A DNA stretch of 64,000 nucleotides from Candidatus Portnoybacteria bacterium (GTDB lineage Bacteria; Patescibacteriota; Minisyncoccia; Portnoybacterales; GWB1-42-6). Below are positions 2,649-58,315 of the stretch, in pieces. A model generated the notes under the pieces. It was not told where the DNA came from, made no database searches, and saw only the letters and a program-made list of their open reading frames with translations. Where the stretch lies: positions 302,620-366,619 of the forward strand of contig JAQTYI010000001.1 of assembly GCA_028688325.1 (NCBI GenBank), written 5' to 3'. How positions within the stretch are numbered: position 1 is the first letter of the stretch; every line of letters begins with the position of its first letter. Position numbers and translations under genes: made by a program.

Positions 2649-2783
2649 TTAGACGGTCAGTTTTTTTCTTTGTTTGCGGCGCCTCTTAGTTAAAACCCGG
2701 CGGCCATAAGAAGTCCTTTGGCGAACCAAAAAACCATGCGTCCTTTTTCTTTTTCTTTTTTTGGGCTGATAAGTAACACTCAT
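2649..2783 (-). CDS. rpmH: 50S ribosomal protein L34. Shorter than 60 aa, so missing from the ORF track
   Basis: Translated by hand: [44 protein letters not shown], a canonical L34. Canonical position upstream of rnpA. Confidence 0.9.
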
Positions 2784-2983
2784 AGAGAATTCTTTAGTGG
2801 TTAATTGTTTTTCAGTATACTATTTAAAAGCAGGGAAGTCAATTTAATTTTTCTTTGTTTTTATTATCCACAACCAATCCACAATTTATCAACAAAAACG
2901 CTCTTTTTTGTATTTTTTTAAATTTAGGGGTATGCTATAATCGTTAACAGAGGGAGGGAAAAAGCCGTTTTTAGCTATTTATT
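2784..2983. promoter_or_regulatory. rpmH-dnaA intergenic region holding DnaA boxes and a dnaA promoter (extended -10 TGCTATAAT at 2933-2941). Candidate oriC or dnaA control region
   Basis: Perfect DnaA box TTATCCACA at 2864-2872. Variants AATCCACAA at about 2877 and TTATCAACA at about 2886. AT-rich stretch upstream of the dnaA ATG. Confidence 0.6.
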
Positions 2984-4360
2984 ATGACTAATGAGCAACT
3001 TTGGCAAACCGCCCTCGGCGAAATTGAGCTTAATATTTCACGGGCCAATTTTATAACTTGGTTCCGCGATACTTTTATCTTTAAAAACAAAGAGGGCGTC
3101 GCCACGATCGGCGTCCCCAACGGCTTCAGTAAAGAATGGCTGGAAAATAAATATAACAAGCTTATTTTGCGGGCGATAAGAAATGTCTCCAGTGATATAA
3201 AAGAACTGAGGTTTATAATTGTCGCCGCATCCTCATCTGTTTCTTCGCCAACTGAACGAATAATAAAAACACCCGGGATAAAAGGAACCCCTGTCGGACA
3301 GGCGCAATCCTTCCAAGAATTAGAGATTGACAAGGACACAAATCTCAACCCCAAATATACTTTTAGTAATTTCATCGTCGGCTCATTCAATGAGCTGGCC
3401 CAGGCCGCGGCTAAGGCCGTGGTTAACAATCCCGGCGAGGCCTATAACCCTCTTTTCATCTATGGCGGCACGGGGCTGGGCAAGACACACCTATTGCAAG
3501 CGATAGGTAACGAAGTCATTGAAAAATACAAAAAGAAAAAAAGGGTCAAATATATCAGCTCGGAAAAATTCACCTCAGAGCTCGTCAGCTCCCTGCATAA
3601 CGGCAAAATCGAGGAATTCAAAGAAAACTACCGCCAAGTCGATATCCTGATTATCGACGACATCCAGTTCTTGTCCGGTAAAGAAAAAACCCAAGAAGAA
3701 TTTTTTCATACTTTCAATTTTTTATACCAAAAAAACAAACAAGTCATCTTAAGCTCCGACCGCTCACCCAAGGCCATCGCCACACTGGAGGAACGCCTGC
3801 GTTCGCGTTTTGAGGGTGGGATGATAACCGACATCTCCCAACCCGACATGGAAACCCGTTTGGCGATCCTGAAGTGCAAGACCATTGAGAAAAAAATAGT
3901 GATTCCCGACGAAATACTCGCTTATATCGCCGCCCATGTCCAAAAGAACATCCGAGAGCTTGAAGGCGCGCTAAATCGCATCATCGCCGCCAACCACACC
4001 ATCACCAGCAATCCCGACATGGCTGTGGTGGCAAAAATACTAAACGACATCATCAACGCGCCAAAAAAATTAACCAACCATAAAAACATAATCCAAGCTG
4101 TAGCGGAATTTTATGATATCAGCGCCGCCGACCTCATCCATCGCTGCCGCCGGAAAGAAGTGGTGGGCCCCCGTCAAGTGGCAATGTATTTGATGAGGGA
4201 AGAGCTGAAAAAATCATTTCCTTTTATTGGGGAAAAATTAGGCGGGCGCGATCACACCACGGTGATGTATGCCTGCGATAAATTAACCAAAGAAGTTGAG
4301 AAAAATGAAATGCTGCAGCAGGAATTAAACCTGATAAAGGAAAAAATTTACAGTAAATAG
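2984..4360 (+). CDS. dnaA: Chromosomal replication initiator DnaA
   Basis: Walker A GTGLGKTHLLQAIGN. Sensor and arginine-finger region IIDDIQFL. C-terminal DnaA-box-binding helix-turn-helix. Confidence 0.95.
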   Translation: MTNEQLWQTALGEIELNISRANFITWFRDTFIFKNKEGVATIGVPNGFSKEWLENKYNKLILRAIRNVSSDIKELRFIIVAASSSVSSPTERIIKTPGIKGTPVGQAQSFQELEIDKDTNLNPKYTFSNFIVGSFNELAQAAAKAVVNNPGEAYNPLFIYGGTGLGKTHLLQAIGNEVIEKYKKKKRVKYISSEKFTSELVSSLHNGKIEEFKENYRQVDILIIDDIQFLSGKEKTQEEFFHTFNFLYQKNKQVILSSDRSPKAIATLEERLRSRFEGGMITDISQPDMETRLAILKCKTIEKKIVIPDEILAYIAAHVQKNIRELEGALNRIIAANHTITSNPDMAVVAKILNDIINAPKKLTNHKNIIQAVAEFYDISAADLIHRCRRKEVVGPRQVAMYLMREELKKSFPFIGEKLGGRDHTTVMYACDKLTKEVEKNEMLQQELNLIKEKIYSK

Positions 4361-4600: not shown

Positions 4601-5701
4601 ATGAAAGTGATTTGTTTGCAGGAAAATTTAAAATTCATTTTGAATATCACCCAAAACATCATCGGGAGGAATTTGACATTGCCAATATTGAATAATGTTT
4701 TACTCCAAACGGAAAACGGGCGGCTAAAGATTTCTTCCACCAACCTGGAAGTCGGCATTAATACCTGGGTTTCAGGAAAAGTTGAAAAAAACGGGGTAAT
4801 AACTTGTCCGGCGAAAGTTCTAGCCAACTTTGTGAATAATCTGCCCAATAAAAAAGTGGAGTTGGAAGTAAAAAATAACACCTTAACCATAAAATGCGAG
4901 AATTATAAGGCCAATCTAAATGGTTTGCCGGCCGATGATTTTCCTATTATTCCCAAAATAGAGGAGGATCCACTAGTTGAATTGAAGAGTGGTGTTTTAC
5001 GAGATGCCTTGCTTAAGGTGGTGGGTGCAGCTTCTTTATCTGAGTCCCGGCCGGAGATAACCGGCATCTTGTTTAAATTCGATAAAAGGGAATTGAAATT
5101 GGCCGCCACAGATAGTTTTCGTTTGGCGGAAAAGATAATTTTTGAAACAAACAAGAAATCAGAGGATGTTAAATCACTAATTATTCCCCAAAAGACCGTT
5201 CAAGAAATAATCAGGGCGTTGGGCGAAAAAGAAACAGATGTGAGGATTTGTCTTAGCGCGAGCCAGATCTTATTTGATGGTGGAGATATACAAGTGATTT
5301 CTAGGTTGATAGACGGCCAATATCCGGACTATCAACAGATAATCCCTAAAAACTTTTCCACTCAAGCGACGATAGATAGGTCTGAATTATTAAGTATTAT
5401 AAAAGTGGCGGCGGTTTTTAGTAATAAAACAAACAGTATTAATTTTTCATTAAACAACAACGAACTCGAGGTTTTATCGCAAGACCCAGAATTGGGAGAA
5501 AATAAATCAAAAATCGCCGCCAAGATCCAAGGTAAAAAAATTGAAGCCAATTTTAATTACCGGTATTTATTGGACGGATTAGCTAATATTGGAACAAAAC
5601 AAGTTTTTTTAGGGCTGAATTCCGATTCTAGCCCAGCCATAATTAAGCCAATAGGTGATGAATCGTATGTTTATTTAATAATGCCGATAAAGGCGAATTA
5701 A
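4601..5701 (+). CDS. dnaN: DNA polymerase III beta sliding clamp
   Basis: 366 aa with typical clamp N-terminus MKVICLQENLKFILNITQNIIGRN. Directly downstream of dnaA. Confidence 0.95.
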   Translation: MKVICLQENLKFILNITQNIIGRNLTLPILNNVLLQTENGRLKISSTNLEVGINTWVSGKVEKNGVITCPAKVLANFVNNLPNKKVELEVKNNTLTIKCENYKANLNGLPADDFPIIPKIEEDPLVELKSGVLRDALLKVVGAASLSESRPEITGILFKFDKRELKLAATDSFRLAEKIIFETNKKSEDVKSLIIPQKTVQEIIRALGEKETDVRICLSASQILFDGGDIQVISRLIDGQYPDYQQIIPKNFSTQATIDRSELLSIIKVAAVFSNKTNSINFSLNNNELEVLSQDPELGENKSKIAAKIQGKKIEANFNYRYLLDGLANIGTKQVFLGLNSDSSPAIIKPIGDESYVYLIMPIKAN

Positions 5702-5705
5702 AAAA

Positions 5706-6002
5706 ATGTCTTGGACCTCTATTGCTTGGGTAATGCCCAAAAAAATTAAAACCTTGGGATTGGAGAAATTTTTTCAACTCAATGGCCTAAAAAATGAATG
5801 GGATGGTGTTTTGGAAAAAATCGCCGGCGGGGGGTTTAAAAATAAATCCAAACCAATCAATTTAAAAAACAATGTTTTAATGGTTGACTGTTTGAATTCC
5901 GTCTGGGCCAATGAATTAAAAATGCGCGAAGGCCGGATACTGGAAGAGATAAAAAAAAGGAATCTGCGGATAGGGGTGGAAAAAATAAGTTTTATTTCTT
6001 AA
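5706..6002 (+). CDS. DUF721/DciA-like protein (candidate ancestral replicative-helicase operator)
   Basis: 98 aa with the DUF721 hallmark VLMVDCLNSVWANELKMREGRILEEI...ISFI. Immediately after dnaN, as DciA commonly is. Confidence 0.55.
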   Translation: MSWTSIAWVMPKKIKTLGLEKFFQLNGLKNEWDGVLEKIAGGGFKNKSKPINLKNNVLMVDCLNSVWANELKMREGRILEEIKKRNLRIGVEKISFIS

Positions 6003-6042
6003 AAAACCGTCTTTTTCGGGAAACGATAAGCGTGCTACGAAT

Positions 6043-6075
6043 AAGGGGCGCTCCGCAAAATGCGGAGCGCCCCTT
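6043..6075. terminator. Bidirectional intrinsic terminator hairpin between convergent genes
   Basis: Perfect inverted repeat AAGGGGCGCTCCGC-AAAA-TGCGGAGCGCCCCTT flanked by A and T runs. Confidence 0.75.
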
Positions 6076-6101
6076 ATAATTAGTTTTGGTTAAAATAAAA
6101 A

Positions 6102-8666
6102 TTATCGGTTTATATATACAATTGCTTTTGCCTCTTGTCGGTTAAAGGCCTGGTCATATACCCGCGCGGAGATGGTTGCTTGACCGTTGGGGATATTATC
6201 TTGAATCAAGGCGTTTATTTGGTAGGGGGCGGACATTGTTGATCCAATGAAGTTATCATTTAGAAAAAAATCCACCTGCCTGGCGCCCAGGGGCGCGGCT
6301 ACATCCGCCTGGATGAATATTTTCGATTGGGTGATGGTTTGGTAATTTACAGGAGCTATCATGTTGATCTTTGGCAGATTGACGGGCGAGCGAGAATTAT
6401 TCTGAGATGGAATGGTTTGACTCGCAATATTAAGCCCGTGCGAAACAAGCCATCTTTGCGCCGCGGCCTCCCAATTCTTGTATTGCTCATCATTGGCGGG
6501 GCTGGTCGGCGCATCGCCTTGCGGATTATCTTTTTGCACATAATAAAGGACGGAGTGGGCGCCAGTGATGGTTTTTTCTTCTACTATATCGGGCGGGGTT
6601 TGGTCCGTGGCGAGAGCCCCTGAAATTTTATCTATCTTAATGGTTTGAGCTGACAAATAAGAGCCATTAAGCATTGATTTATTAGTTTGGATCGGGTCGG
6701 GTTTGATGAATTGTTCGATATTTTTGGGCAGGCAAAAAGCATTAGCCGTTGAATTATCGCAGTTGGTTTTAAGCTTATAGGCCTTTTTTATAAAGTCGTG
6801 CCACAGCGGCCCGGCCGCGGCCAGCCCCGCCCCAGCGCGGGACATTGGGTCGTTGTTATTATTGCCAACCCAAACCCCAACCACCAATGACGGGGTGTAG
6901 CCGAGCGTCCAAGCATCGCGGTATTTTTGAGTGGTGCCGGTTTTGGCGGCTACCGGCCTGTCGGGAAAATATAAAGCGGAATTGGCGCCAAAGACCGGGG
7001 TGCGGGCATTGTTGTCGGATAATACATCCGAGATCAAGCGCGTGGTCTGCGGCTCAAGCACTTTTTCCGGTTGGGGTTTGTATTCCTCTAAAATATTGCC
7101 ATCTTTGTCTTCTATGTTCAGGATCGCCGTTTTTTCATTCTTGGTTCCATCGGCGGCAAAAACACCGTAAGCCGCCACTTCGTCCAATAGCTTCACTTCG
7201 CCGCCGCCCAGCACCAGCGACAAGCCATAATAATTGTCGTTTAAGGAAGTGATTCCCATAGCTTTGGCGGTTTTTATAGTATCTTCAATTCCAGCCAGAT
7301 ACAGTATTTCCACGGAAGGTATATTGAGTGATTGCGCCAAAGCTTCACGCGCGGTCAATGGCCCGCGGAATTTATCGTCGTAGTTTCCGGGGTGGTAGCA
7401 ATCCAGACCATATTGATCCTTCTCCTGGCTCGCGTCAGCGGGGCAATTGGGGTTGAACTCGGTTGGGACATCAAAAAGCACGGTATCGGCCGTGTAGCCC
7501 TTTTTAAAGGCCGTGGCATAGGCGAAAGGTTTAAAAGATGAACCGGGTTGGCGGTCGCGGATGGTCACATTAACATTGCCGTCATGGGCCGTATCAAAAT
7601 AATCATAAGAGCCGACCATAGTCAAAATTTGGCCGGTTTTGGGATCTATGGCTGTTAGGGCGGCGTTTCGCGCACCATATTTTTTCCAGTTGCTTTTGGC
7701 GCCGTCGCTTATTATCTGCTCGGCTGCTTGCTGCAGGTCCCAGTCCAGAGTGGTGTAAACCTTCAGGCCTTGTTTTTCAACGGCGTCCTGGCCATATTTA
7801 TTTTCTATGTATTCTTTGATATACATTACAAAATGCGGCGCCTTGATGCCGTGGGGGGCGGTGGAAAAATTCAGTGGTTCTTTTTTAGCGGCGGCGGCCT
7901 CTTCTTGGGCGATGTATCCGGTTTTAACCATGCGGTCCAGGACATATTCCTGGCGCGCTTTCAATTCTTCTGGATGAGAGCCGTAGGGCGAGAGGCGAGA
8001 GGGGGATTGAGGCAGCGCGGCCAGGAGGGCGCTTTCGACCAACGATAGGTCTTTGGCCGATTTATTGAAAAATGTCTGGCTGGCTGCTTCGATGCCGTAG
8101 GCGTTTGAGCCGTAAGGAACCTGGTTAAGATAGAGCGCCAATATCTCATCTTTGCCATAGCGCCTTTCAAGTTCCAGCGCCAGCACCGCCTCTTTTATCT
8201 TGCGCGTCAGAGAATATTCGTTGGTCAGGATGGAATTTTTTATGAATTGCTGGGTAATGGTTGAGCCACCGCCCGCGCTCCGATTTCTGGTAATGACTCC
8301 CAATGCCGCTCTGGCGATGCCTTTGAAGTCCAGTCCGAAGTGATTGTAAAAATTAGCGTCTTCGGTCGCGATCGTGGCTTTTTTCAGGTAATCGGATATT
8401 TGGTCGATGTTCACTATGGTTCGCTTTTCTTCGCCATGGATGTCATAAAGCAACACCTTGCCGGTGCGATCGTAAATTTTAGTGGATTGCGTGATTTGCC
8501 GTTCGTTTATATTATCGGGATTTGGCAGGTCTTTGGCGAAATAAAGAAAAGCCGCCAAACCAAAAACAACCCCGCAGATAAAAAGCCAAAGAACGAGCTT
8601 TAACAGGGGGCGCAAAAAACCCCAAGAACTTTTCTTATGAAAACGATAAAAAATACTTTTGCCCAT
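6102..8666 (-). CDS. Bifunctional class A penicillin-binding protein (PBP1A-type glycosyltransferase/transpeptidase)
   Basis: GT51 motifs (TITQQFIKN, RKIKEAVLALELE, LNQVPYG). Transpeptidase SSFKP (SxxK) and KTGTT. N-terminal transmembrane anchor. 854 aa. Confidence 0.9.
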   Translation of the reverse strand: MGKSIFYRFHKKSSWGFLRPLLKLVLWLFICGVVFGLAAFLYFAKDLPNPDNINERQITQSTKIYDRTGKVLLYDIHGEEKRTIVNIDQISDYLKKATIATEDANFYNHFGLDFKGIARAALGVITRNRSAGGGSTITQQFIKNSILTNEYSLTRKIKEAVLALELERRYGKDEILALYLNQVPYGSNAYGIEAASQTFFNKSAKDLSLVESALLAALPQSPSRLSPYGSHPEELKARQEYVLDRMVKTGYIAQEEAAAAKKEPLNFSTAPHGIKAPHFVMYIKEYIENKYGQDAVEKQGLKVYTTLDWDLQQAAEQIISDGAKSNWKKYGARNAALTAIDPKTGQILTMVGSYDYFDTAHDGNVNVTIRDRQPGSSFKPFAYATAFKKGYTADTVLFDVPTEFNPNCPADASQEKDQYGLDCYHPGNYDDKFRGPLTAREALAQSLNIPSVEILYLAGIEDTIKTAKAMGITSLNDNYYGLSLVLGGGEVKLLDEVAAYGVFAADGTKNEKTAILNIEDKDGNILEEYKPQPEKVLEPQTTRLISDVLSDNNARTPVFGANSALYFPDRPVAAKTGTTQKYRDAWTLGYTPSLVVGVWVGNNNNDPMSRAGAGLAAAGPLWHDFIKKAYKLKTNCDNSTANAFCLPKNIEQFIKPDPIQTNKSMLNGSYLSAQTIKIDKISGALATDQTPPDIVEEKTITGAHSVLYYVQKDNPQGDAPTSPANDEQYKNWEAAAQRWLVSHGLNIASQTIPSQNNSRSPVNLPKINMIAPVNYQTITQSKIFIQADVAAPLGARQVDFFLNDNFIGSTMSAPYQINALIQDNIPNGQATISARVYDQAFNRQEAKAIVYINR

Positions 8667-8953: not shown

Positions 8954-9264
8954 TTTTAAAATATTTAAAAATTATTTAAATATACATTCGACCTTTCCTT
9001 CATTGTCTTATTAAAAAAGATTAAAATCCTTCGCGGAGTTTACCCCGATGAACATCGGGGCTCAGGATGACAGAAATGCAAATAATATTTTTTCCGTGCC
9101 GTTATTTTATTTTATAAAGAAAGGGGTGTCAACCCCGTTAGAAGTTTTTTATCCACAGTTCCGAGTATTTAAGTTGAGCCGTAGGCGAAATCGCCCGCCT
9201 GGTTGGTTGATAATAAAATACGGCCGGACTTCTATACGGGGTCAAGCGCCGCGGTTGGGGATAT

Positions 9265-29501: not shown

Positions 29502-29554
29502 GATGTCCGACATCCCGAATATTAATGCATTTTAATTTTTGGATGTCGGACATC
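29502..29554. promoter_or_regulatory. Two copies of a perfect 13-bp palindrome GATGTC-N-GACATC (centres 40 bp apart) in the divergent uvrB/ruvA promoter region. Candidate operator
   Basis: GATGTCCGACATC at 29502-29514 and GATGTCGGACATC at 29542-29554. Each is the reverse complement of the other. Confidence 0.5.
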
Positions 29555-49262: not shown

Positions 49263-49799
49263 TTAACGGGATTTGCTGATTAACATATAAAATCCTCTGG
49301 GTTCTTTGGTGATGGGCTGGTCGATGATCGTCGGAATCTGGATATAATTTTTAAAATCTTCCAATTTTTCTTTGGCGAGGTGGCCGAAGGCCTTTTCTCG
49401 TCCCCGCAAAACTATGGAGATTCTGGCGCGGTCGCCCTTTTCCAAGAATTTCTGCGTTTGGGCCGCTTTCATTTCCAGGTCGTGTTTGGCGATATTGAAG
49501 CTCAGCCGGATATTTTTAATTTCAACCTTATGGGTCTTGGTCATCTCCTTGGCTTTCTTTTCTTTCTGGTACAGGAATTTGCCGTAGTCGATTATCTTGC
49601 AGACCGGCGGAACGGCTTTGTCCGTTATCTCCACCAGGTCCAGCCCCCGATCATACGCCAGGGCCAGCGCGTCGGCGGTTTTCATCACGCCAAGCTGCAC
49701 TCCTTTTTCATCAACCACGCGAACTTCCGCCGCACGGATGAAACCGTTGATGCGATTCTGTGGCTGCCTCGGCTGGTTAAAAAATGGTTTTCTTATCAA
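49263..49799 (-). CDS. infC: Translation initiation factor IF-3
   Basis: INGFIRAAEVRVVDEKG...VCKIIDYGKF..., IF3 N and C domains. Confidence 0.9.
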   Translation of the reverse strand: MIRKPFFNQPRQPQNRINGFIRAAEVRVVDEKGVQLGVMKTADALALAYDRGLDLVEITDKAVPPVCKIIDYGKFLYQKEKKAKEMTKTHKVEIKNIRLSFNIAKHDLEMKAAQTQKFLEKGDRARISIVLRGREKAFGHLAKEKLEDFKNYIQIPTIIDQPITKEPRGFYMLISKSR

Positions 49800-50065
49800 G
49801 GTTTGGGGTTAGTGATTAAATGATTTGCCAGTTGTTTTTTCAAAAATTTTCTGCCCGATCCGCTTTTGAGGAATTTTTCTCTGCCCAGTGCATCAAATTT
49901 ATTCAAATATAATTCCGCGTATATCAATTCCCAGTTATCCTTCTTGCTCGTATACGGGGATTTTTTATATTTATGTTCTTGCAGTCGTTGCTTTAGATTC
50001 GAAGTAAAACCAATATACCAGCTTTTATCATTTTGGTTTTCAAGAATATATACAACGTAATGCAT
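49796..50065 (-). CDS. Small GIY-YIG nuclease family protein (second copy) lodged between the tmRNA 3' end and infC
   Basis: MHYVVYILENQNDKSWYIGFTSNLKQRLQEHKYKK... Start-stop overlap ATGA with infC. Confidence 0.7.
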   Translation of the reverse strand: MHYVVYILENQNDKSWYIGFTSNLKQRLQEHKYKKSPYTSKKDNWELIYAELYLNKFDALGREKFLKSGSGRKFLKKQLANHLITNPKP

Positions 50066-51607: not shown

Positions 51608-51812
51608 TTGTCATTCCCGCCTGCTTCGCCAAAGCTCCAGCGAGGCGAGCAAAAGCGGGATCCAGGCCCTATTTGAATTGTCATCCCGCACTTGATGCGG
51701 GATCCAGGTCTTTAAAGTTGTCATCCTGAGCGAAGCGAAGGATCTCTGGCGAATGCCAGATTAGTTGCCCGCATACGCGGGAGATTCCTCGTTGCACTCG
51801 GAATGACAAAGA
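51608..51812. repeat. Three tandem family-1 repeat units upstream of argS
   Basis: TTGTCATTCCCGCC...GGGATCCAGG / TTGTCATCCCGCACTTGATGCGGGATCCAGG / TTGTCATCCTGAGCGAAGCGAAGGATC...GGAATGACAAAG. Confidence 0.8.
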
Positions 51813-51819
51813 ATGATTT

Positions 51820-53442
51820 ATGATCCGTTCCCAAATCCAAAAACTCCTCAACCTTCCCGACGCCGCGATCGACCGGCCGGAAAATCCCGGCTTTGGCGAC
51901 TATTCCACCAACGCGGTTTTGAAATTGGCAAAAAAAGAAGGCAAAAATCCGATGATTTTAGCGCAAGCGTTGGTTCAAAAAATATTGGTGTCTGACACCC
52001 ATATATTTTCCAAAATTGAAGTTGCTTCGCCCGGGTTCATCAATTTCACGCTGTCCAACGAATTTTTCCGCCAACAGGTGGCGGAAATTTTAAAAGCCAA
52101 AGAAAATTACGGCGCAATAAATATCGGCGAAAATAAAAAAGTGCAGGTGGAATTCATTTCCGCCAACCCCACGGGCCCGTTAACGCTGGGCAACGGCCGG
52201 GGCGGATTTTTCGGCGATGTGCTGGCCAATGTGCTGGCGCGCGCCGGTTTTGATGTTAAACGGGAATATTTTGTCAACGACGCGGGTTATCAGGTGGAAG
52301 TGCTGGGTCATTCCGTGCTCAAAGATGAGCAGGCGCAATACAAAGGCGAGTATATCGATAAATTGAACAAAAAATTCATTTGCTGGCTCTGTTCCAAAGA
52401 TCCAAAAAAAGTCGGCCAAAAAGCCGCCAAATATATTTTGGCAAAAATGCTCCAGCCCACCATCAAAGACAGGATGAAAATAAAATTCGATGAATGGGTT
52501 TCGGAAAACTCGTTGCGGCTGTCGGGTGAAACGGATGAAGTTTTGCAAATGCTCAAAGCCAAGAACTTAACCTACGAACAAGACGGCGCCGTGTGGTTTA
52601 AGTCCACCCAATTTGGCGACGATAAAGATCGCGTGCTGATAACTTCCGCCAAAGACGGCAAAAGCGCCGCCGCCACCTACCTTTTGCCGGACGCCGCTTA
52701 TCATTACAAAAAATTCGTCAAAGATAAATTCGATAAAGTCATCAATGTTTGGGGCGCGGATCACCACGGCTATATTTTGCGTTTGCAGGCCGTCAAAAAA
52801 GCCCTGGATATGCCGGGGGAGCTGGAAGTCGTTATCATGCAGCTGGTGCGGCTGATGGTCAAAGGCCAGGAAGTTAAAATGTCCAAGCGCTTGGGGACAT
52901 ATATAACCCTGGATGAATTGCTGGAAGAAATTCCGCTGGATGTGGCGCGATTTTTCTTTTTGATGCGCGCGCCCAACACCCATATGGACTTTGACCTGGA
53001 CCTGGCCAAGGAACAGTCGCAAAAAAATCCGGTCTATTATGTCCAATACGCCTACGCGCGGATCTGCAGTATTCTACGAAAAGCATCGGAAAGTGGTTTC
53101 CCTCCTTCAGGAGGGGTTAGGGGAGATGTTGTATCCGACTATAAGCTACAAGCTAACAGCTATCAGCTACTCTCCCATCCATCAGAATTGGCATTAATCA
53201 AACAACTCATCCGCCTGCCAGAAATCATCGCCGACACCGCCACCGACTATGGTGTCCATCGCCTGCCCCAATACTCCATGGATCTTGTTCGCAGTTTTCA
53301 TAAATTCTACGAGGACTGTAAGGTTATAGATGAGACAAATAAAGATTTAACTGTTGCCCGCTTAGCATTATGCGAGGCGACCAGAATAACCCTCAAGAAT
53401 ACTTTAGACTTGATGGGAATAAGCGCGCCAGAAAAGATGTAA
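51820..53442 (+). CDS. argS: Arginine--tRNA ligase with an in-frame family-2 repeat insertion
   Basis: N-terminal Add-1 domain. HIGH region (SANPTGPLTLGNGRG). KMSKS-like MSKRLG. Anticodon-binding DALR domain. Insert translated as SGFPPSGGVRGDVVSDYKLQANSYQLL. Confidence 0.9.
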   Translation: MIRSQIQKLLNLPDAAIDRPENPGFGDYSTNAVLKLAKKEGKNPMILAQALVQKILVSDTHIFSKIEVASPGFINFTLSNEFFRQQVAEILKAKENYGAINIGENKKVQVEFISANPTGPLTLGNGRGGFFGDVLANVLARAGFDVKREYFVNDAGYQVEVLGHSVLKDEQAQYKGEYIDKLNKKFICWLCSKDPKKVGQKAAKYILAKMLQPTIKDRMKIKFDEWVSENSLRLSGETDEVLQMLKAKNLTYEQDGAVWFKSTQFGDDKDRVLITSAKDGKSAAATYLLPDAAYHYKKFVKDKFDKVINVWGADHHGYILRLQAVKKALDMPGELEVVIMQLVRLMVKGQEVKMSKRLGTYITLDELLEEIPLDVARFFFLMRAPNTHMDFDLDLAKEQSQKNPVYYVQYAYARICSILRKASESGFPPSGGVRGDVVSDYKLQANSYQLLSHPSELALIKQLIRLPEIIADTATDYGVHRLPQYSMDLVRSFHKFYEDCKVIDETNKDLTVARLALCEATRITLKNTLDLMGISAPEKM

Positions 53443-54485
53443 TGGGTGATTATACAATACAATTTTTATTGAATATTATGTCAAAAATCAAAGAATTGTT
53501 AGCGGGTAAAAATGATCAAATCGACTACGAAAAAATAGTTAATGAATACCCCTGGATAATAAAGAAAGGGCAGAATTGTATTTTAAGCCCGGATAGCGAT
53601 GGTTTGTTATGCGGATTATTTATGTCGTCATATTTGGGATGGAAGATAAAAGGGTTTTACGACGGTAAGGTTATGCTGTTAGATAAAAAAACCTCTGTTA
53701 AAGATTGTATTTTTTTAGATATGGAAATTTTTAGAGAAGAGATAAAGAGTGTTGGGCATCATATGGTGCAATTTAATAAAAAGAAAAAGCCCAGCAATTG
53801 GGATAATTTTAAAAATTGTATTCAGGCGAATAATTTAAGAAACTACGATGGCTATAATGATTTTCGTCTAAAATATCCCTTGGCCACAATTCATTTATTA
53901 ATGGGAATAGTTGGTTCAAAAATAAAATTGACGATTCCAAAAACTGCAATTTGTCCACTGCTTTATGTCGATGGCGTGTTTAAAAATTTATTTAGCTATC
54001 CTGAGAACTGCATTGATTGGTTAAGATATCTGAAAGCAGATTTGAGCGCCAACAAATTGAACGATATATTTTTTAACGAACATTATTCTGTTTATGATTT
54101 AATGCTTGCCTTGAAGGATTTTTTCACAAGGATTGACGAAATAAGCGACGGTCGAGGGAGAAATGATAAAATAAAAATTTCTGATTCAAAAGGAAACCCA
54201 ATCAATATTATTAAAAAAGATGATGTTTATGAAATTGATAAAGAAGAAAGTAAAAAGGCGATCATCTTTTTAGAAATTTTGTCGAAGTTAACTAAGTGGG
54301 GATATGATAAAAATGATTGGCAATGGAATAATTTAAAACTTTATCGTTTCAATAAAAGCAGTATTCAGCCAAGTAATAGAAATTTTGAAGAAATGATAAA
54401 AAACAATCCGCTGTCTTGGGCTATGACCAGCGGATTGGCGATAGAATATACCTTAGAAGATAAGAAAAATGCTCTATTAAAATAA
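53442..54485 (+). CDS. Hypothetical low-GC protein (347 aa) with a DHH-like acidic motif series. Possible nuclease partner of the adjacent methyltransferase
   Basis: ATG overlaps the argS stop (TAATG). ILSPDSDGLL...IFLDMEIF...VGHHMV resembles DHH motifs I to III, but spacing is atypical and the third motif has Gly in place of the usual Asp. Clearly lower GC than the flanking genes. Confidence 0.4.
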   Translation: MGDYTIQFLLNIMSKIKELLAGKNDQIDYEKIVNEYPWIIKKGQNCILSPDSDGLLCGLFMSSYLGWKIKGFYDGKVMLLDKKTSVKDCIFLDMEIFREEIKSVGHHMVQFNKKKKPSNWDNFKNCIQANNLRNYDGYNDFRLKYPLATIHLLMGIVGSKIKLTIPKTAICPLLYVDGVFKNLFSYPENCIDWLRYLKADLSANKLNDIFFNEHYSVYDLMLALKDFFTRIDEISDGRGRNDKIKISDSKGNPINIIKKDDVYEIDKEESKKAIIFLEILSKLTKWGYDKNDWQWNNLKLYRFNKSSIQPSNRNFEEMIKNNPLSWAMTSGLAIEYTLEDKKNALLK

Positions 54486-55925
54486 TGTTTTATTGAATAC
54501 ACCTTCTTCTTTTAGGCGTTTTTTTGCCAATTCACAGTATTCAGTTGATGTATCTATTCCAATGTAATTTCTATTTAATTGAATAGCAGCCAAGGCGGTT
54601 GTGCCGCTTCCAATAAATGGGTCTAAAACAACGCCATTTTCCGGGCAGAAGCATTGGATAAAGTCGAGGGGAAGTTTATCGGGAAATGTTGCCGGATGCT
54701 GGTGTTTAAGGCGAGTGCCATCTCCCGCCGTCAGATATTCCCAAATGGTGCCGCGACATTTAGTTGGGTTAATAGTGATCGGCCGAGTGGCAATCCTCAC
54801 GCCATTAGTAAGGCGAGTGCCTCCGCCGGTCAATGTTTTACCGCCGTGTTTTGAGGGAATTTTCAGGGGTTCCTTATTAAAGTATCGCGGCCTCTCTCCT
54901 TTTAGAAAAATCGGCATATATTCATGGTCAACGCGAAATCGTTTATTCCACCAGGCGCCCTCTGCGCCGTATTTTCTGTAAATAACCGTTTCGAATAATT
55001 TAAAGCCGGCATTATCAACCCAGTCCACTATTGTTTTAAACGAGGTTAGCGATTTGCCGAAGTTTTTTGTTTGATCCTGAATAACCATGGCGGCAATGCC
55101 GCCTTCTTTTAATACGCGATATATTTCTTTACCGGTAGCATGTAAATCAAAAGTAAATCCATTATATTTTCTGATTCCGTCATAGGGCGGGGAGGTGACA
55201 ACTAAATCAATTGAGTTATCAGGGATTTTTTTTAGTTCCGCAACTGAATCGCCACAAATAATTTTATTTAGAGGCAGCGCCCCATATTTTTTTGTTTCCT
55301 TTTGCGGCAATAACTCTTCTGCTTGTAGCTCCTTTTCGTTTTTTATTATATCTATAACAATACCTTGTATAGAAATTTCTCTGCCTTTCTTAATTATTAT
55401 TGGTTCAATGGTTTTGTTTGCCGGCTGTAAACGGATATACCCTTTTTCTTTATAGTATTTTTTTAGTGTTGCTTCACAACTATCTATAAGGGCTACTACT
55501 TTTTGTCCATTTTCGGCTGTTTTTTGTTGTCGCACTAAAACAATATCCCCGTCGTTTATATTCTCATCAATCATGCTGTTGCCAATTACACGAAGAGCAT
55601 AGACCTCCGATGACGGGGGAACCTTACTTTTTGGGATAGCGATCGTTTCTCTTTCTTGAATTGCCTCAATCGGCTGACCAGCCGCGATTTGTCCTAGTAG
55701 AGGTACTCTGACTAAGTGGGACGGTTCTGATATTGAAATCCCTCTTGCGCGTCCAGGAATTTTTTCTATGTATCCTTTATTTAGGAGCATATCAAAATGT
55801 TCGTGCGCAGTCGACGGAGAGATTCTAACTCGGCGAGCTATTTCTCGTTCTGTTGGGGCTACGCCATTTTTTAGTATGGCTTTATTTATAAGGTCTTTAA
55901 TTTGTTTTTGCCTTGGGGTAAGCAT
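54477..55925 (-). CDS. Fusion protein: complete LexA (winged helix-turn-helix plus S24 autopeptidase) joined to a C-terminal DNA amino-methyltransferase (N6-adenine/N4-cytosine, SPPY type)
   Basis: LexA helix-turn-helix MLTPRQKQIKDLINKAILKNGVAPTEREIARRV. Ala-Gly cleavage site IAAGQP. Catalytic Ser (VIGNSM) and Lys (EATLKKY). Then a linker. Methyltransferase motif IV DLVVTSPPY and motif I DPFIGSGTT. Confidence 0.75.
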   Translation of the reverse strand: MLTPRQKQIKDLINKAILKNGVAPTEREIARRVRISPSTAHEHFDMLLNKGYIEKIPGRARGISISEPSHLVRVPLLGQIAAGQPIEAIQERETIAIPKSKVPPSSEVYALRVIGNSMIDENINDGDIVLVRQQKTAENGQKVVALIDSCEATLKKYYKEKGYIRLQPANKTIEPIIIKKGREISIQGIVIDIIKNEKELQAEELLPQKETKKYGALPLNKIICGDSVAELKKIPDNSIDLVVTSPPYDGIRKYNGFTFDLHATGKEIYRVLKEGGIAAMVIQDQTKNFGKSLTSFKTIVDWVDNAGFKLFETVIYRKYGAEGAWWNKRFRVDHEYMPIFLKGERPRYFNKEPLKIPSKHGGKTLTGGGTRLTNGVRIATRPITINPTKCRGTIWEYLTAGDGTRLKHQHPATFPDKLPLDFIQCFCPENGVVLDPFIGSGTTALAAIQLNRNYIGIDTSTEYCELAKKRLKEEGVFNKTLF

Positions 55926-56095
55926 ATATATATTATACTATGTATACCCGAGCAAAACCCGAGCAGTTATCCACAGGAGAAGTATTGACAGTTTTTTATA
56001 CAGGTCTATACTTGAGTTGATAGAGTAGCTTAACAGACTAACAACTTTTCCTTTAAATCAGAGATTTTAATCAATAATTTATTAAATTAACTACC

Positions 56096-56353
56096 ATGAT
56101 TGAAGAAAATAATATTATAAACAAAGACATTTCCGAGCTTAACAAGCGATTGGGAGTAGTTATATCACTTCTTCTGCGTATGACACCAAGTGATAGGCCG
56201 AGTAGAAGCTTGAAGGAGCAGGTAGGGATTTTAGATGATCTTGGTATTCGTCCTCGCGATATAGCCGAAATCTTAGGTCGAACCCAGCCGCATATTAACA
56301 AAGAGCTAGTCGGGCTTCGTAGAGAAAAGCACAAAAAACATGAGCAAAAGTAA
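56096..56353 (+). CDS. Small helix-turn-helix protein, sigma-70 region-4-like (paralog A of six)
   Basis: ...LGVVISLLLRM...GIRPRDIAEILGRTQPHINKELVGLRR. Confidence 0.5.
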   Translation: MIEENNIINKDISELNKRLGVVISLLLRMTPSDRPSRSLKEQVGILDDLGIRPRDIAEILGRTQPHINKELVGLRREKHKKHEQK

Positions 56354-56588
56354 AAAGAATAAGCTATTTATTGATAAAGACTTGTCGCTTGCGCGCCTGG
56401 ATGCATTACTGGTCCTCTTAAGTGAACTATTATGTCAGCTTTCGAAAGATAAAGCATCTGCGAAAGGCGCTAGAGAAAAATCGGCTGTAATTCTTGTGTC
56501 TGGCGGAATGACGCAGGAGCGAGCCGCCAAAGTATTAGGTATGCAGAAAAAAACAGTCGTTGAAGCAATTAAAAATATAAAAATATGA
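56340..56588 (+). CDS. Small helix-turn-helix protein, sigma-70 region-4-like (paralog B)
   Basis: LARLDALLVLLSELL...GMTQERAAKVLGMQKKTVVEAIKNIK. Overlaps paralog A by 14 nt. Confidence 0.5.
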   Translation: MSKSKKNKLFIDKDLSLARLDALLVLLSELLCQLSKDKASAKGAREKSAVILVSGGMTQERAAKVLGMQKKTVVEAIKNIKI

Positions 56589-56809
56589 AAGACAAAAATC
56601 AAGATTTATTTGAACAAGTCTCAAAAAAGTTGAGTGCCCTAATAGCACTTTCGTTTATTGAAGATGTTTCAAAGATGACAAATGAAAAGGGCGTAGAAGT
56701 GCTTAACCGCTTTGGGTTAAGCAATCAAGATATCGCGAATATTATAGGCACCACTAAAAAAACAGTCGAGGTATTAAAAAGTCGTATTAAAAATAAAAAA
56801 ATAAAATAA
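56585..56809 (+). CDS. Small helix-turn-helix protein, sigma-70 region-4-like (paralog C)
   Basis: LSALIALSFI...GLSNQDIANIIGTTKKTVEVLKSRIKNKK, the closest of the six to the sigma region 4.2 consensus. Confidence 0.55.
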   Translation: MKDKNQDLFEQVSKKLSALIALSFIEDVSKMTNEKGVEVLNRFGLSNQDIANIIGTTKKTVEVLKSRIKNKKIK

Positions 56810-56810
56810 T

Positions 56811-57014
56811 ATGGATAATAAAATTATTAACGAGCTTAAAAATTTAAATGAGGTCGTAAAAGACTTATTTATATTTCTTATGTGTAGAGAGGGATTTGGT
56901 CAAAAGGAAATCAGAACTGTCTTTGGAAAAATAGATTGTGCAAGGATAACGAAAATTGCCTCGGGTATTAAAAAGGTTGCTGCGCAGAAAATTAAAAATG
57001 ATAAGAAAAAATAA
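56811..57014 (+). CDS. Small helix-turn-helix protein, sigma-70 region-4-like (paralog D)
   Basis: LNEVVKDLFIFLMCREGFGQKEIRTVFGKIDCARITKIASGIKK. Confidence 0.5.
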   Translation: MDNKIINELKNLNEVVKDLFIFLMCREGFGQKEIRTVFGKIDCARITKIASGIKKVAAQKIKNDKKK

Positions 57015-57015
57015 T

Positions 57016-57204
57016 ATGGCAAAAACAATTGGTAGACATCCCTTGGATAGAAAATTAAATAGAATTATTTATTTGCTTGAATCTCTTCTTGCTTTAGAGT
57101 TTAACCGAACCAATCTTGATCGTAATAAAATTCGTGCTCGTTTAAGTATTGATAAAGCAAAAGTAAATAAAATACTGGATGGTATCAAAAGATCGAATAA
57201 TTAA
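57016..57204 (+). CDS. Small helix-turn-helix protein (paralog E). Start moved to the ATG just after the stop of paralog D
   Basis: MAKTIGRHPLDRKLNRIIYLLESLLALEFNRTNLDRNKIRARLSIDKAKVNKILDGIKRS. Confidence 0.45.
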   Translation: MAKTIGRHPLDRKLNRIIYLLESLLALEFNRTNLDRNKIRARLSIDKAKVNKILDGIKRSNN

Positions 57205-57216
57205 AATAATGAAAAT

Positions 57217-57378
57217 ATGGACAAAAAAATAATAAAACTGCTTGAAGACATTAAAAAACTCATGATTCTTAATCTTGTTGAGCGCGGTATACAGGCGAGC
57301 GCCGTTGCTGGCATACTAAAAGTTACCAAGGGAACACTTAGTAAGATGGTGCCAGCTAGAAAGATTAAGAAGGGTTAA
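57217..57378 (+). CDS. Small helix-turn-helix protein (paralog F, 53 aa, below the ORF-track cutoff)
   Basis: Hand-translated MDKKIIKLLEDIKKLMILNLVERGIQASAVAGILKVTKGTLSKMVPARKIKKG*. Confidence 0.4.
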   Translation: MDKKIIKLLEDIKKLMILNLVERGIQASAVAGILKVTKGTLSKMVPARKIKKG

Positions 57379-57381
57379 TTT

Positions 57382-58248
57382 ATGTTTCATTCTCCAGTTA
57401 GGGTCACAGATACGCTTTCTAATTATAATGATCAGCTTGCAACAGCTGCGAAAATTTTAGGTCGCTCTAAAGTGAGAAGGCGAATTTTCGAGGCAATTTA
57501 TAGAGGTAAGAAAGAAATAAAGACTATTAAAGAGCTTATGAGATTTACTGGATATTCTCAAACTCATATTCTAAAAGAAGGTGGCAAGATGGATGGATTC
57601 TTGATCGAAAAAATTTCCAATGGATATAGAAAAAGAAAAGAATTTTCGCCGAGATATAGAGACATTATTGAGCTAGTAAAAAATAAGAAAAAATTAGAAA
57701 AATTATCAACTAAAACGCATCCAAAAACCGCTGTTAATATAGGGCGAGTCTCTGTCTCTTTTCCTATCTCGGCTCAAAATGCTCATTATATTACCATCGA
57801 CGATATAGGATCTTTTTCAAAGGTGAGGGGGGCGTTGGCAGGTTCTCCTGTTAAGGGTCTCAGGGAGAACGAAATCAAAGATCTTTTTAAAAGGATTCTG
57901 AAAGAAAAGGGGACATTTAAAGATTGGGGTGGAGAAAAAAGCGATTTATTTTCAACTCGATTAATTTTAAAATCGAAGCGTTTAAGATGTGCCATTGCTT
58001 TTAAAGGAAGAGGAACTAAAGGAAAACTAGTTCCTGCTAAAATGGGAAAGAATGGTGATCAAATTACTAGACTTTTTGATGAGCCAGCGGATTTATATCT
58101 AATTGTTTATAATGGACAGATTGATTCTTCAATAGTATCTCAAATGCAGGCCTTCGCTGTCGTTAAGGCGATTAGTGGCCAGACGGTTTATTATGGTGTA
58201 ATTGATGGGGCAGACTTGAGCCTAATTTTTGCTGCATATAAACAATAA
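57382..58248 (+). CDS. Winged-helix DNA-binding protein with a C-terminal domain of unknown fold (possible restriction-endonuclease-like domain)
   Basis: N-terminal helix-turn-helix RRRIFEAIYRGKKEIKTIKELMRFTGYSQTHILKE. C-terminal ...GGEKSDLF...RCAIAFKGRGTKGKLVPAKMGKNGDQITRL...DLYLIVYNGQ. Last gene of the low-GC island. Confidence 0.4.
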   Translation: MFHSPVRVTDTLSNYNDQLATAAKILGRSKVRRRIFEAIYRGKKEIKTIKELMRFTGYSQTHILKEGGKMDGFLIEKISNGYRKRKEFSPRYRDIIELVKNKKKLEKLSTKTHPKTAVNIGRVSVSFPISAQNAHYITIDDIGSFSKVRGALAGSPVKGLRENEIKDLFKRILKEKGTFKDWGGEKSDLFSTRLILKSKRLRCAIAFKGRGTKGKLVPAKMGKNGDQITRLFDEPADLYLIVYNGQIDSSIVSQMQAFAVVKAISGQTVYYGVIDGADLSLIFAAYKQ

Positions 58249-58315
58249 TGAAAATTAACTAGTATGGAAATCTATCGAAGTCTGACATCGGTAAATCGCT
58301 TGATTTTATTAAACC

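Follow-up and report, generated by a model that had tools for sequence, protein, structure and literature searches.

A complete LexA repressor fused in frame to a DNA methyltransferase in a putative restriction-modification module of Patescibacteria

Background

Why would a LexA repressor be joined, in one reading frame, to a DNA methyltransferase, and what would such a protein control? The question is raised by a gene in a 64-kb window of Portnoybacteria DNA. The window is the whole stretch of 64,000 nucleotides analysed here, ~8% of its 788,852-bp contig, and our searches of this contig for lexA, recA, and operator copies cover the window. A first-pass annotation, made from the letters alone, saw in the gene a possible link between the SOS response and DNA methylation, or control of the adjacent genomic island. 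Such a design would tie genome self-protection to DNA damage. How Type II restriction-modification (R-M) systems avoid killing their own hosts is a long-standing question, with C-proteins, methylases bearing a helix-turn-helix (HTH), antisense RNA, and promoter methylation as known answers. The SOS field has yet to explain the hypervariability of LexA-binding motifs (PMC8565304).

A full-text literature search, with the 2017 paper on the Patescibacteria SOS response (Sanchez-Osuna et al., Environ Microbiol) outside its scope, returned no description of a LexA-methyltransferase fusion, and neither a review of R-M regulation (PMC3874152) nor the Aravind survey of SOS domains mentions one. The NCBI entry of identical sequence, from a metagenome-assembled genome of Portnoybacteria, is labelled 'transcriptional repressor LexA'. 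This label and 'adenine-specific methyltransferase', as currently used, mislead surveys of SOS regulons and of defence systems in the candidate phyla radiation.

Results

A LexA joined to a beta-class methyltransferase

The gene and its parts are as follows.

54477..55925, minus strand: LexA-methyltransferase fusion gene, 482 aa plus stop codon (open reading frame list; Pfam and NCBIfam domains)
55716..55925, minus strand: LexA winged-helix DNA-binding domain, aa 1-70 (PF01726), with recognition helix ...SPSTAHEHF...
55677..55682, minus strand: Ala82-Gly83 codons, predicted self-cleavage site (IAAGQP), aligning with E. coli A84-G85
55338..55703, minus strand: S24 peptidase or LexA C-terminal domain, aa 75-196 (PF00717, 5e-31)
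55575-55577, minus strand: Ser117 codon (GNSM), predicted nucleophile, aligning with E. coli S119
55461-55463, minus strand: Lys155 codon (TLKK), predicted general base, aligning with E. coli K156
55272..55337, minus strand: linker of ~22 aa from S24 to methyltransferase (EKELQAEELLPQKETKKYGALP), without a domain match
54480..55271, minus strand: beta-class N4/N6 DNA methyltransferase domain, aa 219-482 (PF01555, 1.5e-39)
55182-55193, minus strand: motif IV of the methyltransferase, TSPPY, aa 244-248
54603-54623, minus strand: motif I of the methyltransferase, DPFIGSG, aa 435-441

Domain searches and alignments confirm that a complete LexA with intact catalytic residues and a beta-class DNA methyltransferase share a single reading frame. 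Pfam places LexA_DNA_bind at residues 2-62 (1.4e-17), Peptidase_S24 at 75-191 (5e-31), and N6_N4_Mtase at 239-469 (1.5e-39; 136.7 bits against a gathering score of 26.7). All the motifs quoted in the first-pass annotation, those of the methyltransferase included, lie where it placed them. The lexA equivalog TIGR00498 (NCBIfam; cutoff 110.95 bits) scores 187.3 bits, with model positions 4-201 of 203 covered by the fusion. The solved LexA structures 3k2z and 1jhh align end to end with the LexA half. The in-frame linker is likewise present, at ~22 rather than the roughly 25 residues first estimated; a full-length AF2 model, with a mean pLDDT of only 65, falls below 50 at residues 198-214 of this region.

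On the methyltransferase side, motif IV lies N-terminal to motif I, as in the beta class to which the domain had been assigned. The PADLOC models for Type II and orphan methyltransferases match the domain, and its best PDB matches include the N4-cytosine methyltransferases 8s9n and 1boo. By rule, SPPY rather than DPPY in motif IV points to N4-methylcytosine (m4C); because the motif here is SPPY, the enzyme probably forms m4C and not N6-methyladenine.

The fusion is not an artefact of assembly. Its ~483-aa architecture recurs in over 120 clusters defined at 90% identity, and two copies from independent read sets (L005 and L006) are 100% identical. Relatives occur in hundreds of independent assemblies and in 362 species-representative genomes, and the methyltransferase part is 71-91% identical across the family. 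In an alignment of 25 diverse full-length homologs, A82-G83, S117, K155, SPPY, and DPFxGxG are all invariant. The conservation of the S24 catalytic residues extends to 50 representatives, each from another 50%-identity cluster, in which the Ala-Gly pair, the Ser, and the Lys do not vary. Control of methylation by RecA and the SOS response is the most economical reading of this invariant cleavage site and Ser-Lys dyad.

A predicted operator that follows one residue of the recognition helix

The first-pass annotation offered GATGTC-N-GACATC palindromes as binding sites of the N-terminal domain. These are found at 29502, 29542, and 58277, outside the promoter, and their position rules them out as its operator. 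A direct repeat occupies the promoter instead.

55932..55937, minus strand: TATAAT -10 hexamer, 6 nt upstream of the ATG (sequence)
55947..55964, minus strand: predicted operator, direct repeat GCTCGGG-TTTT-GCTCGGG, 7-bp unit, 11-bp period
55966..55975, minus strand: TGTGGATAAC, DnaA-box-like element adjoining the operator

The spacing of TATAAT and ATG is common to most homologous promoters and suggests a leaderless-type promoter for the fusion gene. The window has a single copy of GCTCGGG-N4-GCTCGGG, and an equivalent direct repeat lies upstream of nearly every family member. A regulon search of the window and of 42 related loci placed the operator at the gene's own promoter only, with one exception, an inverted second copy in L082.

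Across 57 loci, the repeat unit covaries with the recognition-helix residue x in S-T-x-H-x-H. Glutamate goes with a GGG unit (6/6 loci), glutamine with GGT (nine of ten), and phenylalanine, tyrosine, or histidine with TAT- or GAT-type units (41/41); unfused lexA genes, fetched independently, follow the same rule. The family's units (TTTCTAT, TTTCGAT, TTTCGGT, TTTCGGG, and GCTCGGG) diverge fast, in step with this one residue. The DNA-binding domain is also the most variable stretch of the family: it is 15-45% identical to that of L007, the closest relative overall, versus 62-74% identical to those of L012 and L130, which have the same operator as this gene. These comparisons indicate that promoter, operator, and HTH are swapped as a unit, with the hinge as the exchange point.

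The 9-mer TGTGGATAAC has three exact copies in the window versus 0.45 expected, one of them in the rpmH-dnaA region. It is present exactly in 43 of the 57 LexA-methyltransferase promoters, and in 54 with at most one mismatch, at a background rate of 0.009 per 150 bp; 0/40 promoters of viral genes encoding the methyltransferase only have it.

The operator bears on whether the S24 domain does anything beyond pairing subunits. The C-terminal domain of LexA is its dimerisation domain, and variants with a winged HTH and methyltransferase but no S24 keep the same operators. Both observations would fit a methylase that, like those of the M.SsoII type, is constitutive and represses itself, with S24 as a dimerisation module and no response to DNA damage. 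We consider this unlikely because dimerisation alone needs neither an invariant cleavage site nor the dyad, yet Ala-Gly, Ser, and Lys are invariant in the 50 cluster representatives, whose methyltransferase parts are unrelated.

A conserved convergent partner in a low-GC island

The gene lies in a compositionally distinct segment, as the first-pass annotation had noted, next to a convergent gene.

53443..58315, no strand: low-GC island (composition), GC 0.355 versus 0.47 in the flanks, between argS and a UDG gene
53478..54485, plus strand: partner gene in the 'R' position, 335 aa, conserved, with a putative DHH/RecJ-like fold
53586-53603, plus strand: invariant partner motif SPDSDG
53712-53726, plus strand: invariant partner motif FLDME
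53754-53762, plus strand: invariant partner motif GHH
54477..54485, no strand: 9-bp overlap of the convergent 3' ends (coordinates), no terminator between

The island contains the module of LexA-methyltransferase and partner together with unrelated cargo, namely an array of small open reading frames and a 288-aa open reading frame, which are not conserved with the module in relatives. Control of the adjacent island by the fusion protein, as first proposed, finds no support: the only operator copy in the window is at the gene's own promoter, and the neighbouring array does not travel with the module. The module itself occurs in different contexts in different genomes. Within the 64-kb window there is neither a recA nor a second lexA, the latter in line with the earlier remark that no standalone lexA is seen.

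The neighbour is indeed convergent, but alignment with homologs starts it at 53478, giving 335 aa rather than 347; this start is 35 nt after argS, and the window copy has no C gene. The 9-bp overlap of 3' ends recurs in L001-L003, and a terminator scan detected none between the two genes, its overall terminator count not being significant. The invariant residues of the partner are a DxD (D39 and D41), D81, and H94-H95; its third motif is GHH, not DHH, the Asp being replaced by Gly. None of 36 family members matches Pfam DHH even at E = 10, and sequence and profile searches of Pfam, NCBIfam, PADLOC, and the PDB returned no match for the partner. Foldseek gave only non-significant matches. A conventional nuclease was also considered and rejected, as no recognised fold matched (PD-(D/E)XK, HNH, GIY-YIG, PLD, or half-pipe).

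The suggestion that the neighbour is a restriction or toxin partner fits its genomic position. The partner family of about 960 sequences occupies the slot of a restriction enzyme, and nearly all loci with sufficient sequence show it linked to the methyltransferase, in a range of genomic settings. The convergent partner always follows methyltransferases at least 69% identical to this one, whether the N-terminus is a full LexA, a winged HTH only, or absent. In 36 distinct loci, a gene for a 73-aa HTH_3 C-protein lies directly upstream of the partner; by gene order, a C-protein gene ahead of a nuclease gene is the classic R-M layout. From its putative fold and genomic context, we infer that the partner serves as nuclease or toxin to the methylase.

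The linkage might have a different origin, with an orphan epigenetic methylase beside a DHH phosphoesterase that acts on nucleotides or nanoRNA. The DHH enzymes described so far act as exonucleases or phosphodiesterases, and we know of no sequence-specific endonuclease among them; the missing PADLOC and Pfam matches of the partner would also fit. This reading is quite improbable given the strict synteny with overlapping 3' ends and a shared C-protein, which lies upstream of the partner just as it does of genuine HNH restriction enzymes. Viral homologs, moreover, comprise the methyltransferase only, without the partner, and tblastn found no partner match in curated plasmids and phages.

The LexA module as a proposed exchangeable controller

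In a second fusion class, a LexA module whose S24 part is 74-78% identical is attached to a different methyltransferase, convergent with His-Me/Endonuclease_7 (Hpy99I-like) nucleases; it is in this class that the C-protein of the partner loci recurs upstream of HNH enzymes. All 50 cluster representatives have LexA and S24, and their methylases are N6_N4 (31), Eco57I (6), D12 (5), N6_Mtase (4), C5 (3), and MmeI-type (3); at least four methyltransferase families thus carry the module. Unfused LexA proteins of the same clade head operons of LexA, methyltransferase, and TdeIII restriction enzyme, and of LexA, C5 methyltransferase, Vsr, and PD-(D/E)XK nuclease; an EcoRII-C nuclease lies downstream of another LexA-methyltransferase fusion. 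Judged from these arrangements, the LexA module can be swapped as a controller among many unrelated methyltransferases and R-M operons, and the fusion is one example of a design that is widespread in Patescibacteria and seemingly undescribed.

Because the module is swappable in this way, the fusion protein is probably not the SOS master repressor of the cell. The opposite view, close to that of the first-pass annotation, is that a genuine master repressor carries the methyltransferase, and that its cleavage derepresses a genome-wide regulon and releases an epigenetic effector. The protein does pass the TIGR00498 equivalog, the window has no other lexA, and direct-repeat LexA boxes are documented, with Patescibacteria among them by citation (PMC7739468). 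The view is nonetheless rather unlikely, since L053 has two different LexA-methyltransferase genes within 6.3 kb, the module resides in a low-GC island and in differing contexts among genomes, the HTH-operator cassette is exchanged among close relatives, the operator is restricted to the gene's own promoter in 64 kb and about 80 loci, and the LexA module is consistently tied to R-M genes.

Discussion

On balance, and with modest confidence, we favour the reading that the fusion protein is the autorepressed, RecA-cleavable methylase (M) of a mobile, Type II R-M-like two-gene module, in which DNA damage leads to more methylation. Binding of the LexA winged helix to GCTCGGG-N4-GCTCGGG next to the -10 box is well supported, and because the operator abuts that box of its own promoter, the enzyme would repress its own synthesis, like methylases of the M.SsoII type. 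RecA activated on single-stranded DNA would then trigger S24 self-cleavage at Ala82-Gly83, as the invariant residues suggest. Cleavage would free the DNA-binding domain from the dimerising S24-methyltransferase body and lift repression, and a burst of methyltransferase would follow, the S24-methyltransferase fragment presumably remaining active. The burst would shield the chromosome from the partner (53478-54485), the pair's putative nuclease or toxin, during DNA breakage and resynthesis. The outcome could resemble 'restriction alleviation', here in a Type II setting, or amount to a feedback loop by which self-restriction is ended. Once derepressed, the M promoter may also dampen the partner gene through convergent read-through, and the DnaA-box-like element could feed in replication status.

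Cleavage might also have the reverse effect. In E. coli, ClpXP and Lon degrade the fragments of LexA, and SOS is commonly the trigger for S24 repressors in mobile elements. By analogy, cleavage could destabilise the methylase and let methylation lapse, and the partner would then destroy host and phage DNA in a damage-triggered suicide or abortive infection, in keeping with the toxin-antitoxin-like addiction behaviour of R-M modules (PMC3874152). This seems very improbable, as the same cleavage derepresses methylase synthesis, the sequence indicates no degron, and existing DNA methylation persists without replication.

If the favoured reading of a damage-derepressed methylase is true, a methylase-borne LexA adds DNA-damage feedback to R-M control. 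A more extensive reading joins the results: RecA-cleavable LexA modules, fused or upstream, would be general, exchangeable R-M controllers in Patescibacteria, with private operators set by one residue and a DnaA-box input, and restriction nucleases would gain, in the partner, their first member of DHH/RecJ fold. We put this forward tentatively, as possible but somewhat doubtful. To our knowledge, no known restriction enzyme has a DHH/RecJ-like fold; if the partner has one, it could add a new fold to the restriction nucleases and serve as a source of new enzymes. For LexA evolution, the family supplies helix-operator pairs by the dozen from nature, in which one residue sets the code and the swapping of cassettes can be seen.

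Comparison with known systems

In Type I restriction alleviation, HsdR of EcoKI is degraded by ClpXP after DNA damage, and we know of no described Type II equivalent. The outcome proposed here is alike, with less self-restriction on a damaged chromosome or on unmodified repair tracts, but R is proteolysed in the Type I case, whereas M would be derepressed in this one. Unlike the DHH/RecJ/Cdc45/NrnA phosphoesterases (PDB 7ykv, 7bhi, and 1ir6), the partner has no Pfam DHH match, a Gly for the Asp, another C-terminal half, and, in its loci, the place of a restriction nuclease. The C protein-regulated R-M systems (PvuII, BamHI, AhdI, and Esp1396I) resemble the 36 related loci with an HTH_3 gene before a nuclease convergent with the methylase; in contrast to them, the window copy has no C gene, and its M gene brings along a second regulator in the form of LexA.

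With canonical LexA (E. coli and Thermotoga; TIGR00498, 1jhh, and 3k2z), the fusion shares the winged helix, the Ala-Gly site, the Ser-Lys dyad, and an operator at its own promoter, the basis of autoregulation that is also proposed for the fusion. Canonical LexA is a stand-alone protein of ~200 aa, whereas the fusion, at 482 aa, adds a 264-aa C-terminal DNA methyltransferase, lies in a mobile island, has its operator at its own promoter only (in the window and related loci), and has its DNA-binding cassette exchanged among close relatives. The LexA box of Alphaproteobacteria, GTTC-N7-GTTC, is likewise a direct repeat of 11-bp period (PMC8565304), and L009, L044, and L066 have exactly GTTCGG-N5-GTTCGG; unlike that box, the repeat unit of this family diversifies rapidly with one helix residue.

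M.SsoII, M.Ecl18kI, M.EcoRII, M.MspI, and M.ScrFIA are Type II methylases that repress their own promoters through an N-terminal HTH (PMC3874152). SsoII-type methylases share with the fusion an N-terminal DNA-binding domain and an operator, predicted here, in the promoter of their own gene. They belong, however, to the C5 methylases, carry a short Xre-like HTH, and lack a protease, whereas the fusion is an N6_N4 beta-class enzyme with LexA and S24, and its self-cleavage domain adds a potential input from DNA damage. In the circuits of lambda CI, SXT SetR, and coliphage 186 Tum/LexA, stand-alone repressors control genes for lysogeny or transfer. There, as proposed here, a mobile element reads host DNA damage through a RecA-sensitive S24 domain; unlike those repressors, the one in the fusion is covalently attached to the enzyme under its control.

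The LexA-methyltransferase fusion and its convergent partner

The locus comprises the following features.

54477-55925, minus strand: LexA-methyltransferase (MTase) fusion gene, 482 aa, ATG at 55925
53478-54485, plus strand: convergent partner gene, 335 aa from a conserved start at 53478, its stop overlapping that of the fusion gene by 9 bp
55932-55937: TATAAT box of the fusion-gene promoter
55947-55964: operator GCTCGGG-TTTT-GCTCGGG
55966-55975: DnaA-box-like element TGTGGATAAC, abutting the operator

The fusion protein contains LexA_DNA_bind (residues 2 to 62), Peptidase_S24 (75 to 191), and N6_N4_Mtase (239 to 469) domains, all far over the Pfam gathering scores, and matches the NCBI curated lexA equivalog model at 187 bits (cutoff 111) over 198 of 203 model positions. 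Its first 196 residues and solved LexA structures can be aligned with no large gap, which places the E. coli scissile bond at A82-G83, the nucleophile at S117, and the general base at K155. Motif IV (TSPPY, 244 to 248) precedes motif I (DPFIGSG, 435 to 441), the order by which the MTase sequence is assigned to the beta class. Motif coordinates were re-derived from the sequence, and they agree, as do the domains and models, with the first-pass annotation, which had described LexA hallmarks joined to a beta-class MTase. With a pLDDT of 65 the full-length AF2 model is of low quality, but its disordered segment (198 to 214) fits a flexible S24-MTase linker.

The fusion is genuine and widespread. 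NCBI lists the identical protein, from a Portnoybacteria MAG, as "transcriptional repressor LexA" on a 788,852-bp contig, and two assemblies from independent read sets contain it unchanged (100% identity). At 90% identity, >120 clusters share the three-domain architecture of ~483 aa; their members come from Portnoy-, Pace-, Giovannoni-, and Falkowbacteria and other Parcubacteria. When one genome per species was scanned, 362 species proved to have a relative. The residues A82-G83, S117, and K155 and the motifs SPPY and DPFxGxG are invariant in 25 of 25 diverse members. With no frameshift between the halves and the catalytic residues intact, the first-pass proposal of an intact fusion stands. 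A role of S24 in dimerisation only appears unlikely.

About 960 relatives of the partner were found, all unannotated, and those bearing an organism name are Patescibacteria. Its invariant residues, including S-P-D39-x-D41-G, F-L-D81-x-E, and G-H94-H95, and its AlphaFold model (36 sequences; pLDDT 86.5, pTM 0.89) indicate that it is probably a DHH-type metal-dependent phosphoesterase, though a very divergent one, an assignment of moderate confidence. Gene position predicts that it serves as the module's "R" or toxin; we know of no restriction endonuclease with a DHH fold.

Conservation of the module was examined by tblastn on 86 loci, with the query split into HTH, S24, MTase, and partner. At every locus with an MTase of at least 69% identity and enough contig beyond it, the convergent partner is next. 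The MTase N terminus is modular: the majority have a full LexA, L061, L062, L066, L067, and L072 have a winged helix without S24, and about 10 loci have no detectable N-terminal domain, while in L057-L059 and L075 a separate divergent LexA-like S24 repressor gene lies directly upstream. In 36 distinct loci a controller-type (C-protein) gene, whose product is a 73-aa HTH_3 protein, directly precedes the partner, the classical C->R <- M arrangement of C-protein restriction-modification (R-M) systems. That the two genes are not an R-M system is unlikely beside this layout. The window copy and its nearest relative, L007, have no C gene, and the window partner starts 35 nt past the argS stop. On viral contigs, MTase-only homologs (50 to 72% identical) occur without the partner, a pattern usual for phages that have borrowed an R-M methylase from their host.

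In a Pacebacteria genome the layout is the same and the partner 73% identical, but the module is flanked by ribonucleotide-reductase and arsenic-resistance genes, unlike the window module, which is flanked by argS and UDG. In the Pacebacteria loci L001-L003 (7712-8000) a ribonucleotide-reductase operon runs divergently from the LexA-MTase promoter. In the low-GC island of the window, behind a strong divergent promoter (TTGACA-16-TATACT, 55985-56012), six consecutive small ORFs (85, 82, 74, 67, 62, and 53 aa) and a 288-aa ORF occupy 56096-58248 (+). Several of the small ORFs have weak HTH matches and faint similarity to each other; the 288-aa ORF has no family match, and its C terminus (GGEKSD...AIAFKG) gives only a vague impression of a nuclease. 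Every other locus lacks these ORFs beside the module.

Operator and promoter

Almost all family members share a promoter plan in which a 7-bp unit forms a direct repeat of 11-bp period, which overlaps or directly adjoins a TATAAT box whose spacing from the ATG (6 to 9 nt) suggests a leaderless transcript. The window repeat occurs once in 64 kb (8% of the genome), and in 42 loci examined the repeat is confined to the gene's own promoter, except for one inverted second copy in L082. The unit covaries with residue x of the recognition-helix motif S-T-x-H-x-H, with zero cross-class cases; four unfused lexA genes retrieved later follow the same rule, providing an independent check.

Table. Helix residue and repeat unit
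Helix residue; unit end; loci
E; ...CGGG; 6/6
Q; ...CGGT; 9/10 (one GGC)
F, Y or H; ...CTAT / CGAT type; 41/41

The fusion protein is 88 to 91% identical to L007 from residue 76 on, but 15 to 45% in residues 1 to 75, and its HTH (62 to 74% identical) and operator match L012, L130, and L131 instead, which shows that promoter, operator, and HTH have been exchanged as a single cassette at the hinge. We have good confidence in the prediction that the LexA domain autoregulates the fusion gene. According to PMC7739468, which cites the Patescibacteria study, direct-repeat boxes arose several times in LexA evolution, and the Alphaproteobacteria box GTTC-N7-GTTC likewise has an 11-bp period (PMC8565304).

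GATGTC-N-GACATC palindromes, which the first-pass annotation had named as sites to check for binding of the N-terminal domain, are unrelated to the fusion-gene promoter. Exact copies lie at 29502-29514 and 29542-29554, 40 bp apart, and a third with 1 mismatch lies at 58277-58289, between the 288-aa ORF and the UDG gene (3 in the window vs 0.02 expected); they are probably the operator of some other regulator.

LexA modules on other methylases

When the LexA half alone was searched against 1.84 billion cluster representatives, its nearest relatives (46 to 69% identical) were mostly proteins of 393 to 841 aa, and ordinary ~200-aa LexAs predominated only from about 45% identity downward. Among 50 long representatives examined, all had LexA_DNA_bind and S24, with AG, Ser, and Lys invariant, and the C termini were N6_N4_Mtase (31), Eco57I-type (6), D12/Dam-like (5), N6_Mtase (4), C5 DNA_methylase (3), and MmeI-type (3). 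In a second locus set the same LexA (S24 74 to 78% identical) is joined to another MTase (~40% identical), convergent and overlapping with small His-Me/Endonuclease_7 nucleases with an Hpy99I-type beta4-alpha2 domain. Unfused LexAs of this clade are also first genes of R-M operons, as in L129 (LexA -> N6_N4 MTase -> TdeIII-family REase) and L132 (LexA -> C5 MTase -> ... -> Vsr -> PD-(D/E)XK nuclease). The 6.3-kb contig L053 has two different LexA-MTases (564-2429 and 4992-6299), with an EcoRII-C nuclease after the first, and L072 (1395-5420) has two HTH(wHTH)-MTase/nuclease pairs in tandem. This variety of fusions, LexA-headed operons, and duplicates argues that each LexA domain serves its own R-M module as a private regulator; that the fusion protein is instead the cell's single SOS master repressor is distinctly unlikely.

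The sole viral-contig fusion (IMG/VR contig L125, 773-3128) has a third MTase type (24% identical), a convergent unannotated 305-aa protein, and a TTTCGAT repeat operator.

A DnaA-box-like element at the promoter

The 9-mer TGTGGATAA occurs three times in the window (0.45 expected), including a copy beside the near-copy TGTGGATTG in the rpmH-dnaA intergenic region (about 2864-2885). Boxes within 150 bp of promoters were counted by promoter class, against a background of 0.009 per 150 bp.

Table. Promoters with a DnaA box
Class; exact; up to 1 mismatch
LexA-MTase (n=57); 43; 54
Cellular MTase-only (n=11); 2; 2
Viral MTase-only (n=40); 0; 2

Both cellular MTase-only loci with a box (L060, L064) have an N-terminal extension of ~98 aa that had gone undetected, and in L060 a direct repeat is present as well. 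Either orientation of the box is found. It is constant where the operator varies and accompanies unrelated MTases, so it is neither a LexA site nor a methylation target. As its reader, DnaA is the obvious candidate.

The replication-origin neighbourhood lies at 2700-4360, with rpmH (-), dnaA (2984-4357, +), and a cumulative GC-skew minimum at 3 to 4 kb. Another copy of TGTGGATAA, at 9149-9157 (-), is just upstream of the TTGACA -35 box of a class A PBP gene (6102-8666, -), in the same geometry as at LexA-MTase promoters. A "GTCATCCTGAG...CGAAGGAT"-type hairpin at ~9050-9095 (-) and ~51680-51850 may be a dispersed repeat element or structured RNA, since its spurious translation ILRFAQDDN recurs near 51.7 kb. 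An 89-aa GIY-YIG-like protein (YILENQNDKSWYIGFT...; 49796-50065, -) adjoins the smpB region.

Proposed mechanism and comparison with known systems

Comparative evidence shows intact domains, an R-M context, and an operator with its putative cognate helix. RecA-stimulated cleavage at A82-G83 would part the DNA-binding domain from the S24-MTase body, and the resulting loss of repression would raise the methyltransferase level. Partner expression may also drop through read-through, since the genes converge and a terminator scan found none between them. The proposed benefit is that the chromosome would be shielded from self-restriction during damage and repair. The physiological direction, protection vs more R, is the least secure step, because derepression of LexA->M->R operons (L129) would raise R too in some relatives. 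Damage-triggered suicide is the least probable of the alternatives.

Sanchez-Osuna et al. 2017, the study likeliest to have met such fusions, lay outside the full-text literature and targeted reviews covered, which held no description of LexA-methyltransferase fusions or LexA-controlled R-M. Databases name family proteins "LexA" or "adenine-specific methyltransferase". The proposed effect would be a Type II analogue of restriction alleviation. The fusion belongs with autoregulatory R-M methylases, to which it would add a damage sensor that cleaves itself, an operator code set by one residue, and a partner of predicted DHH fold.
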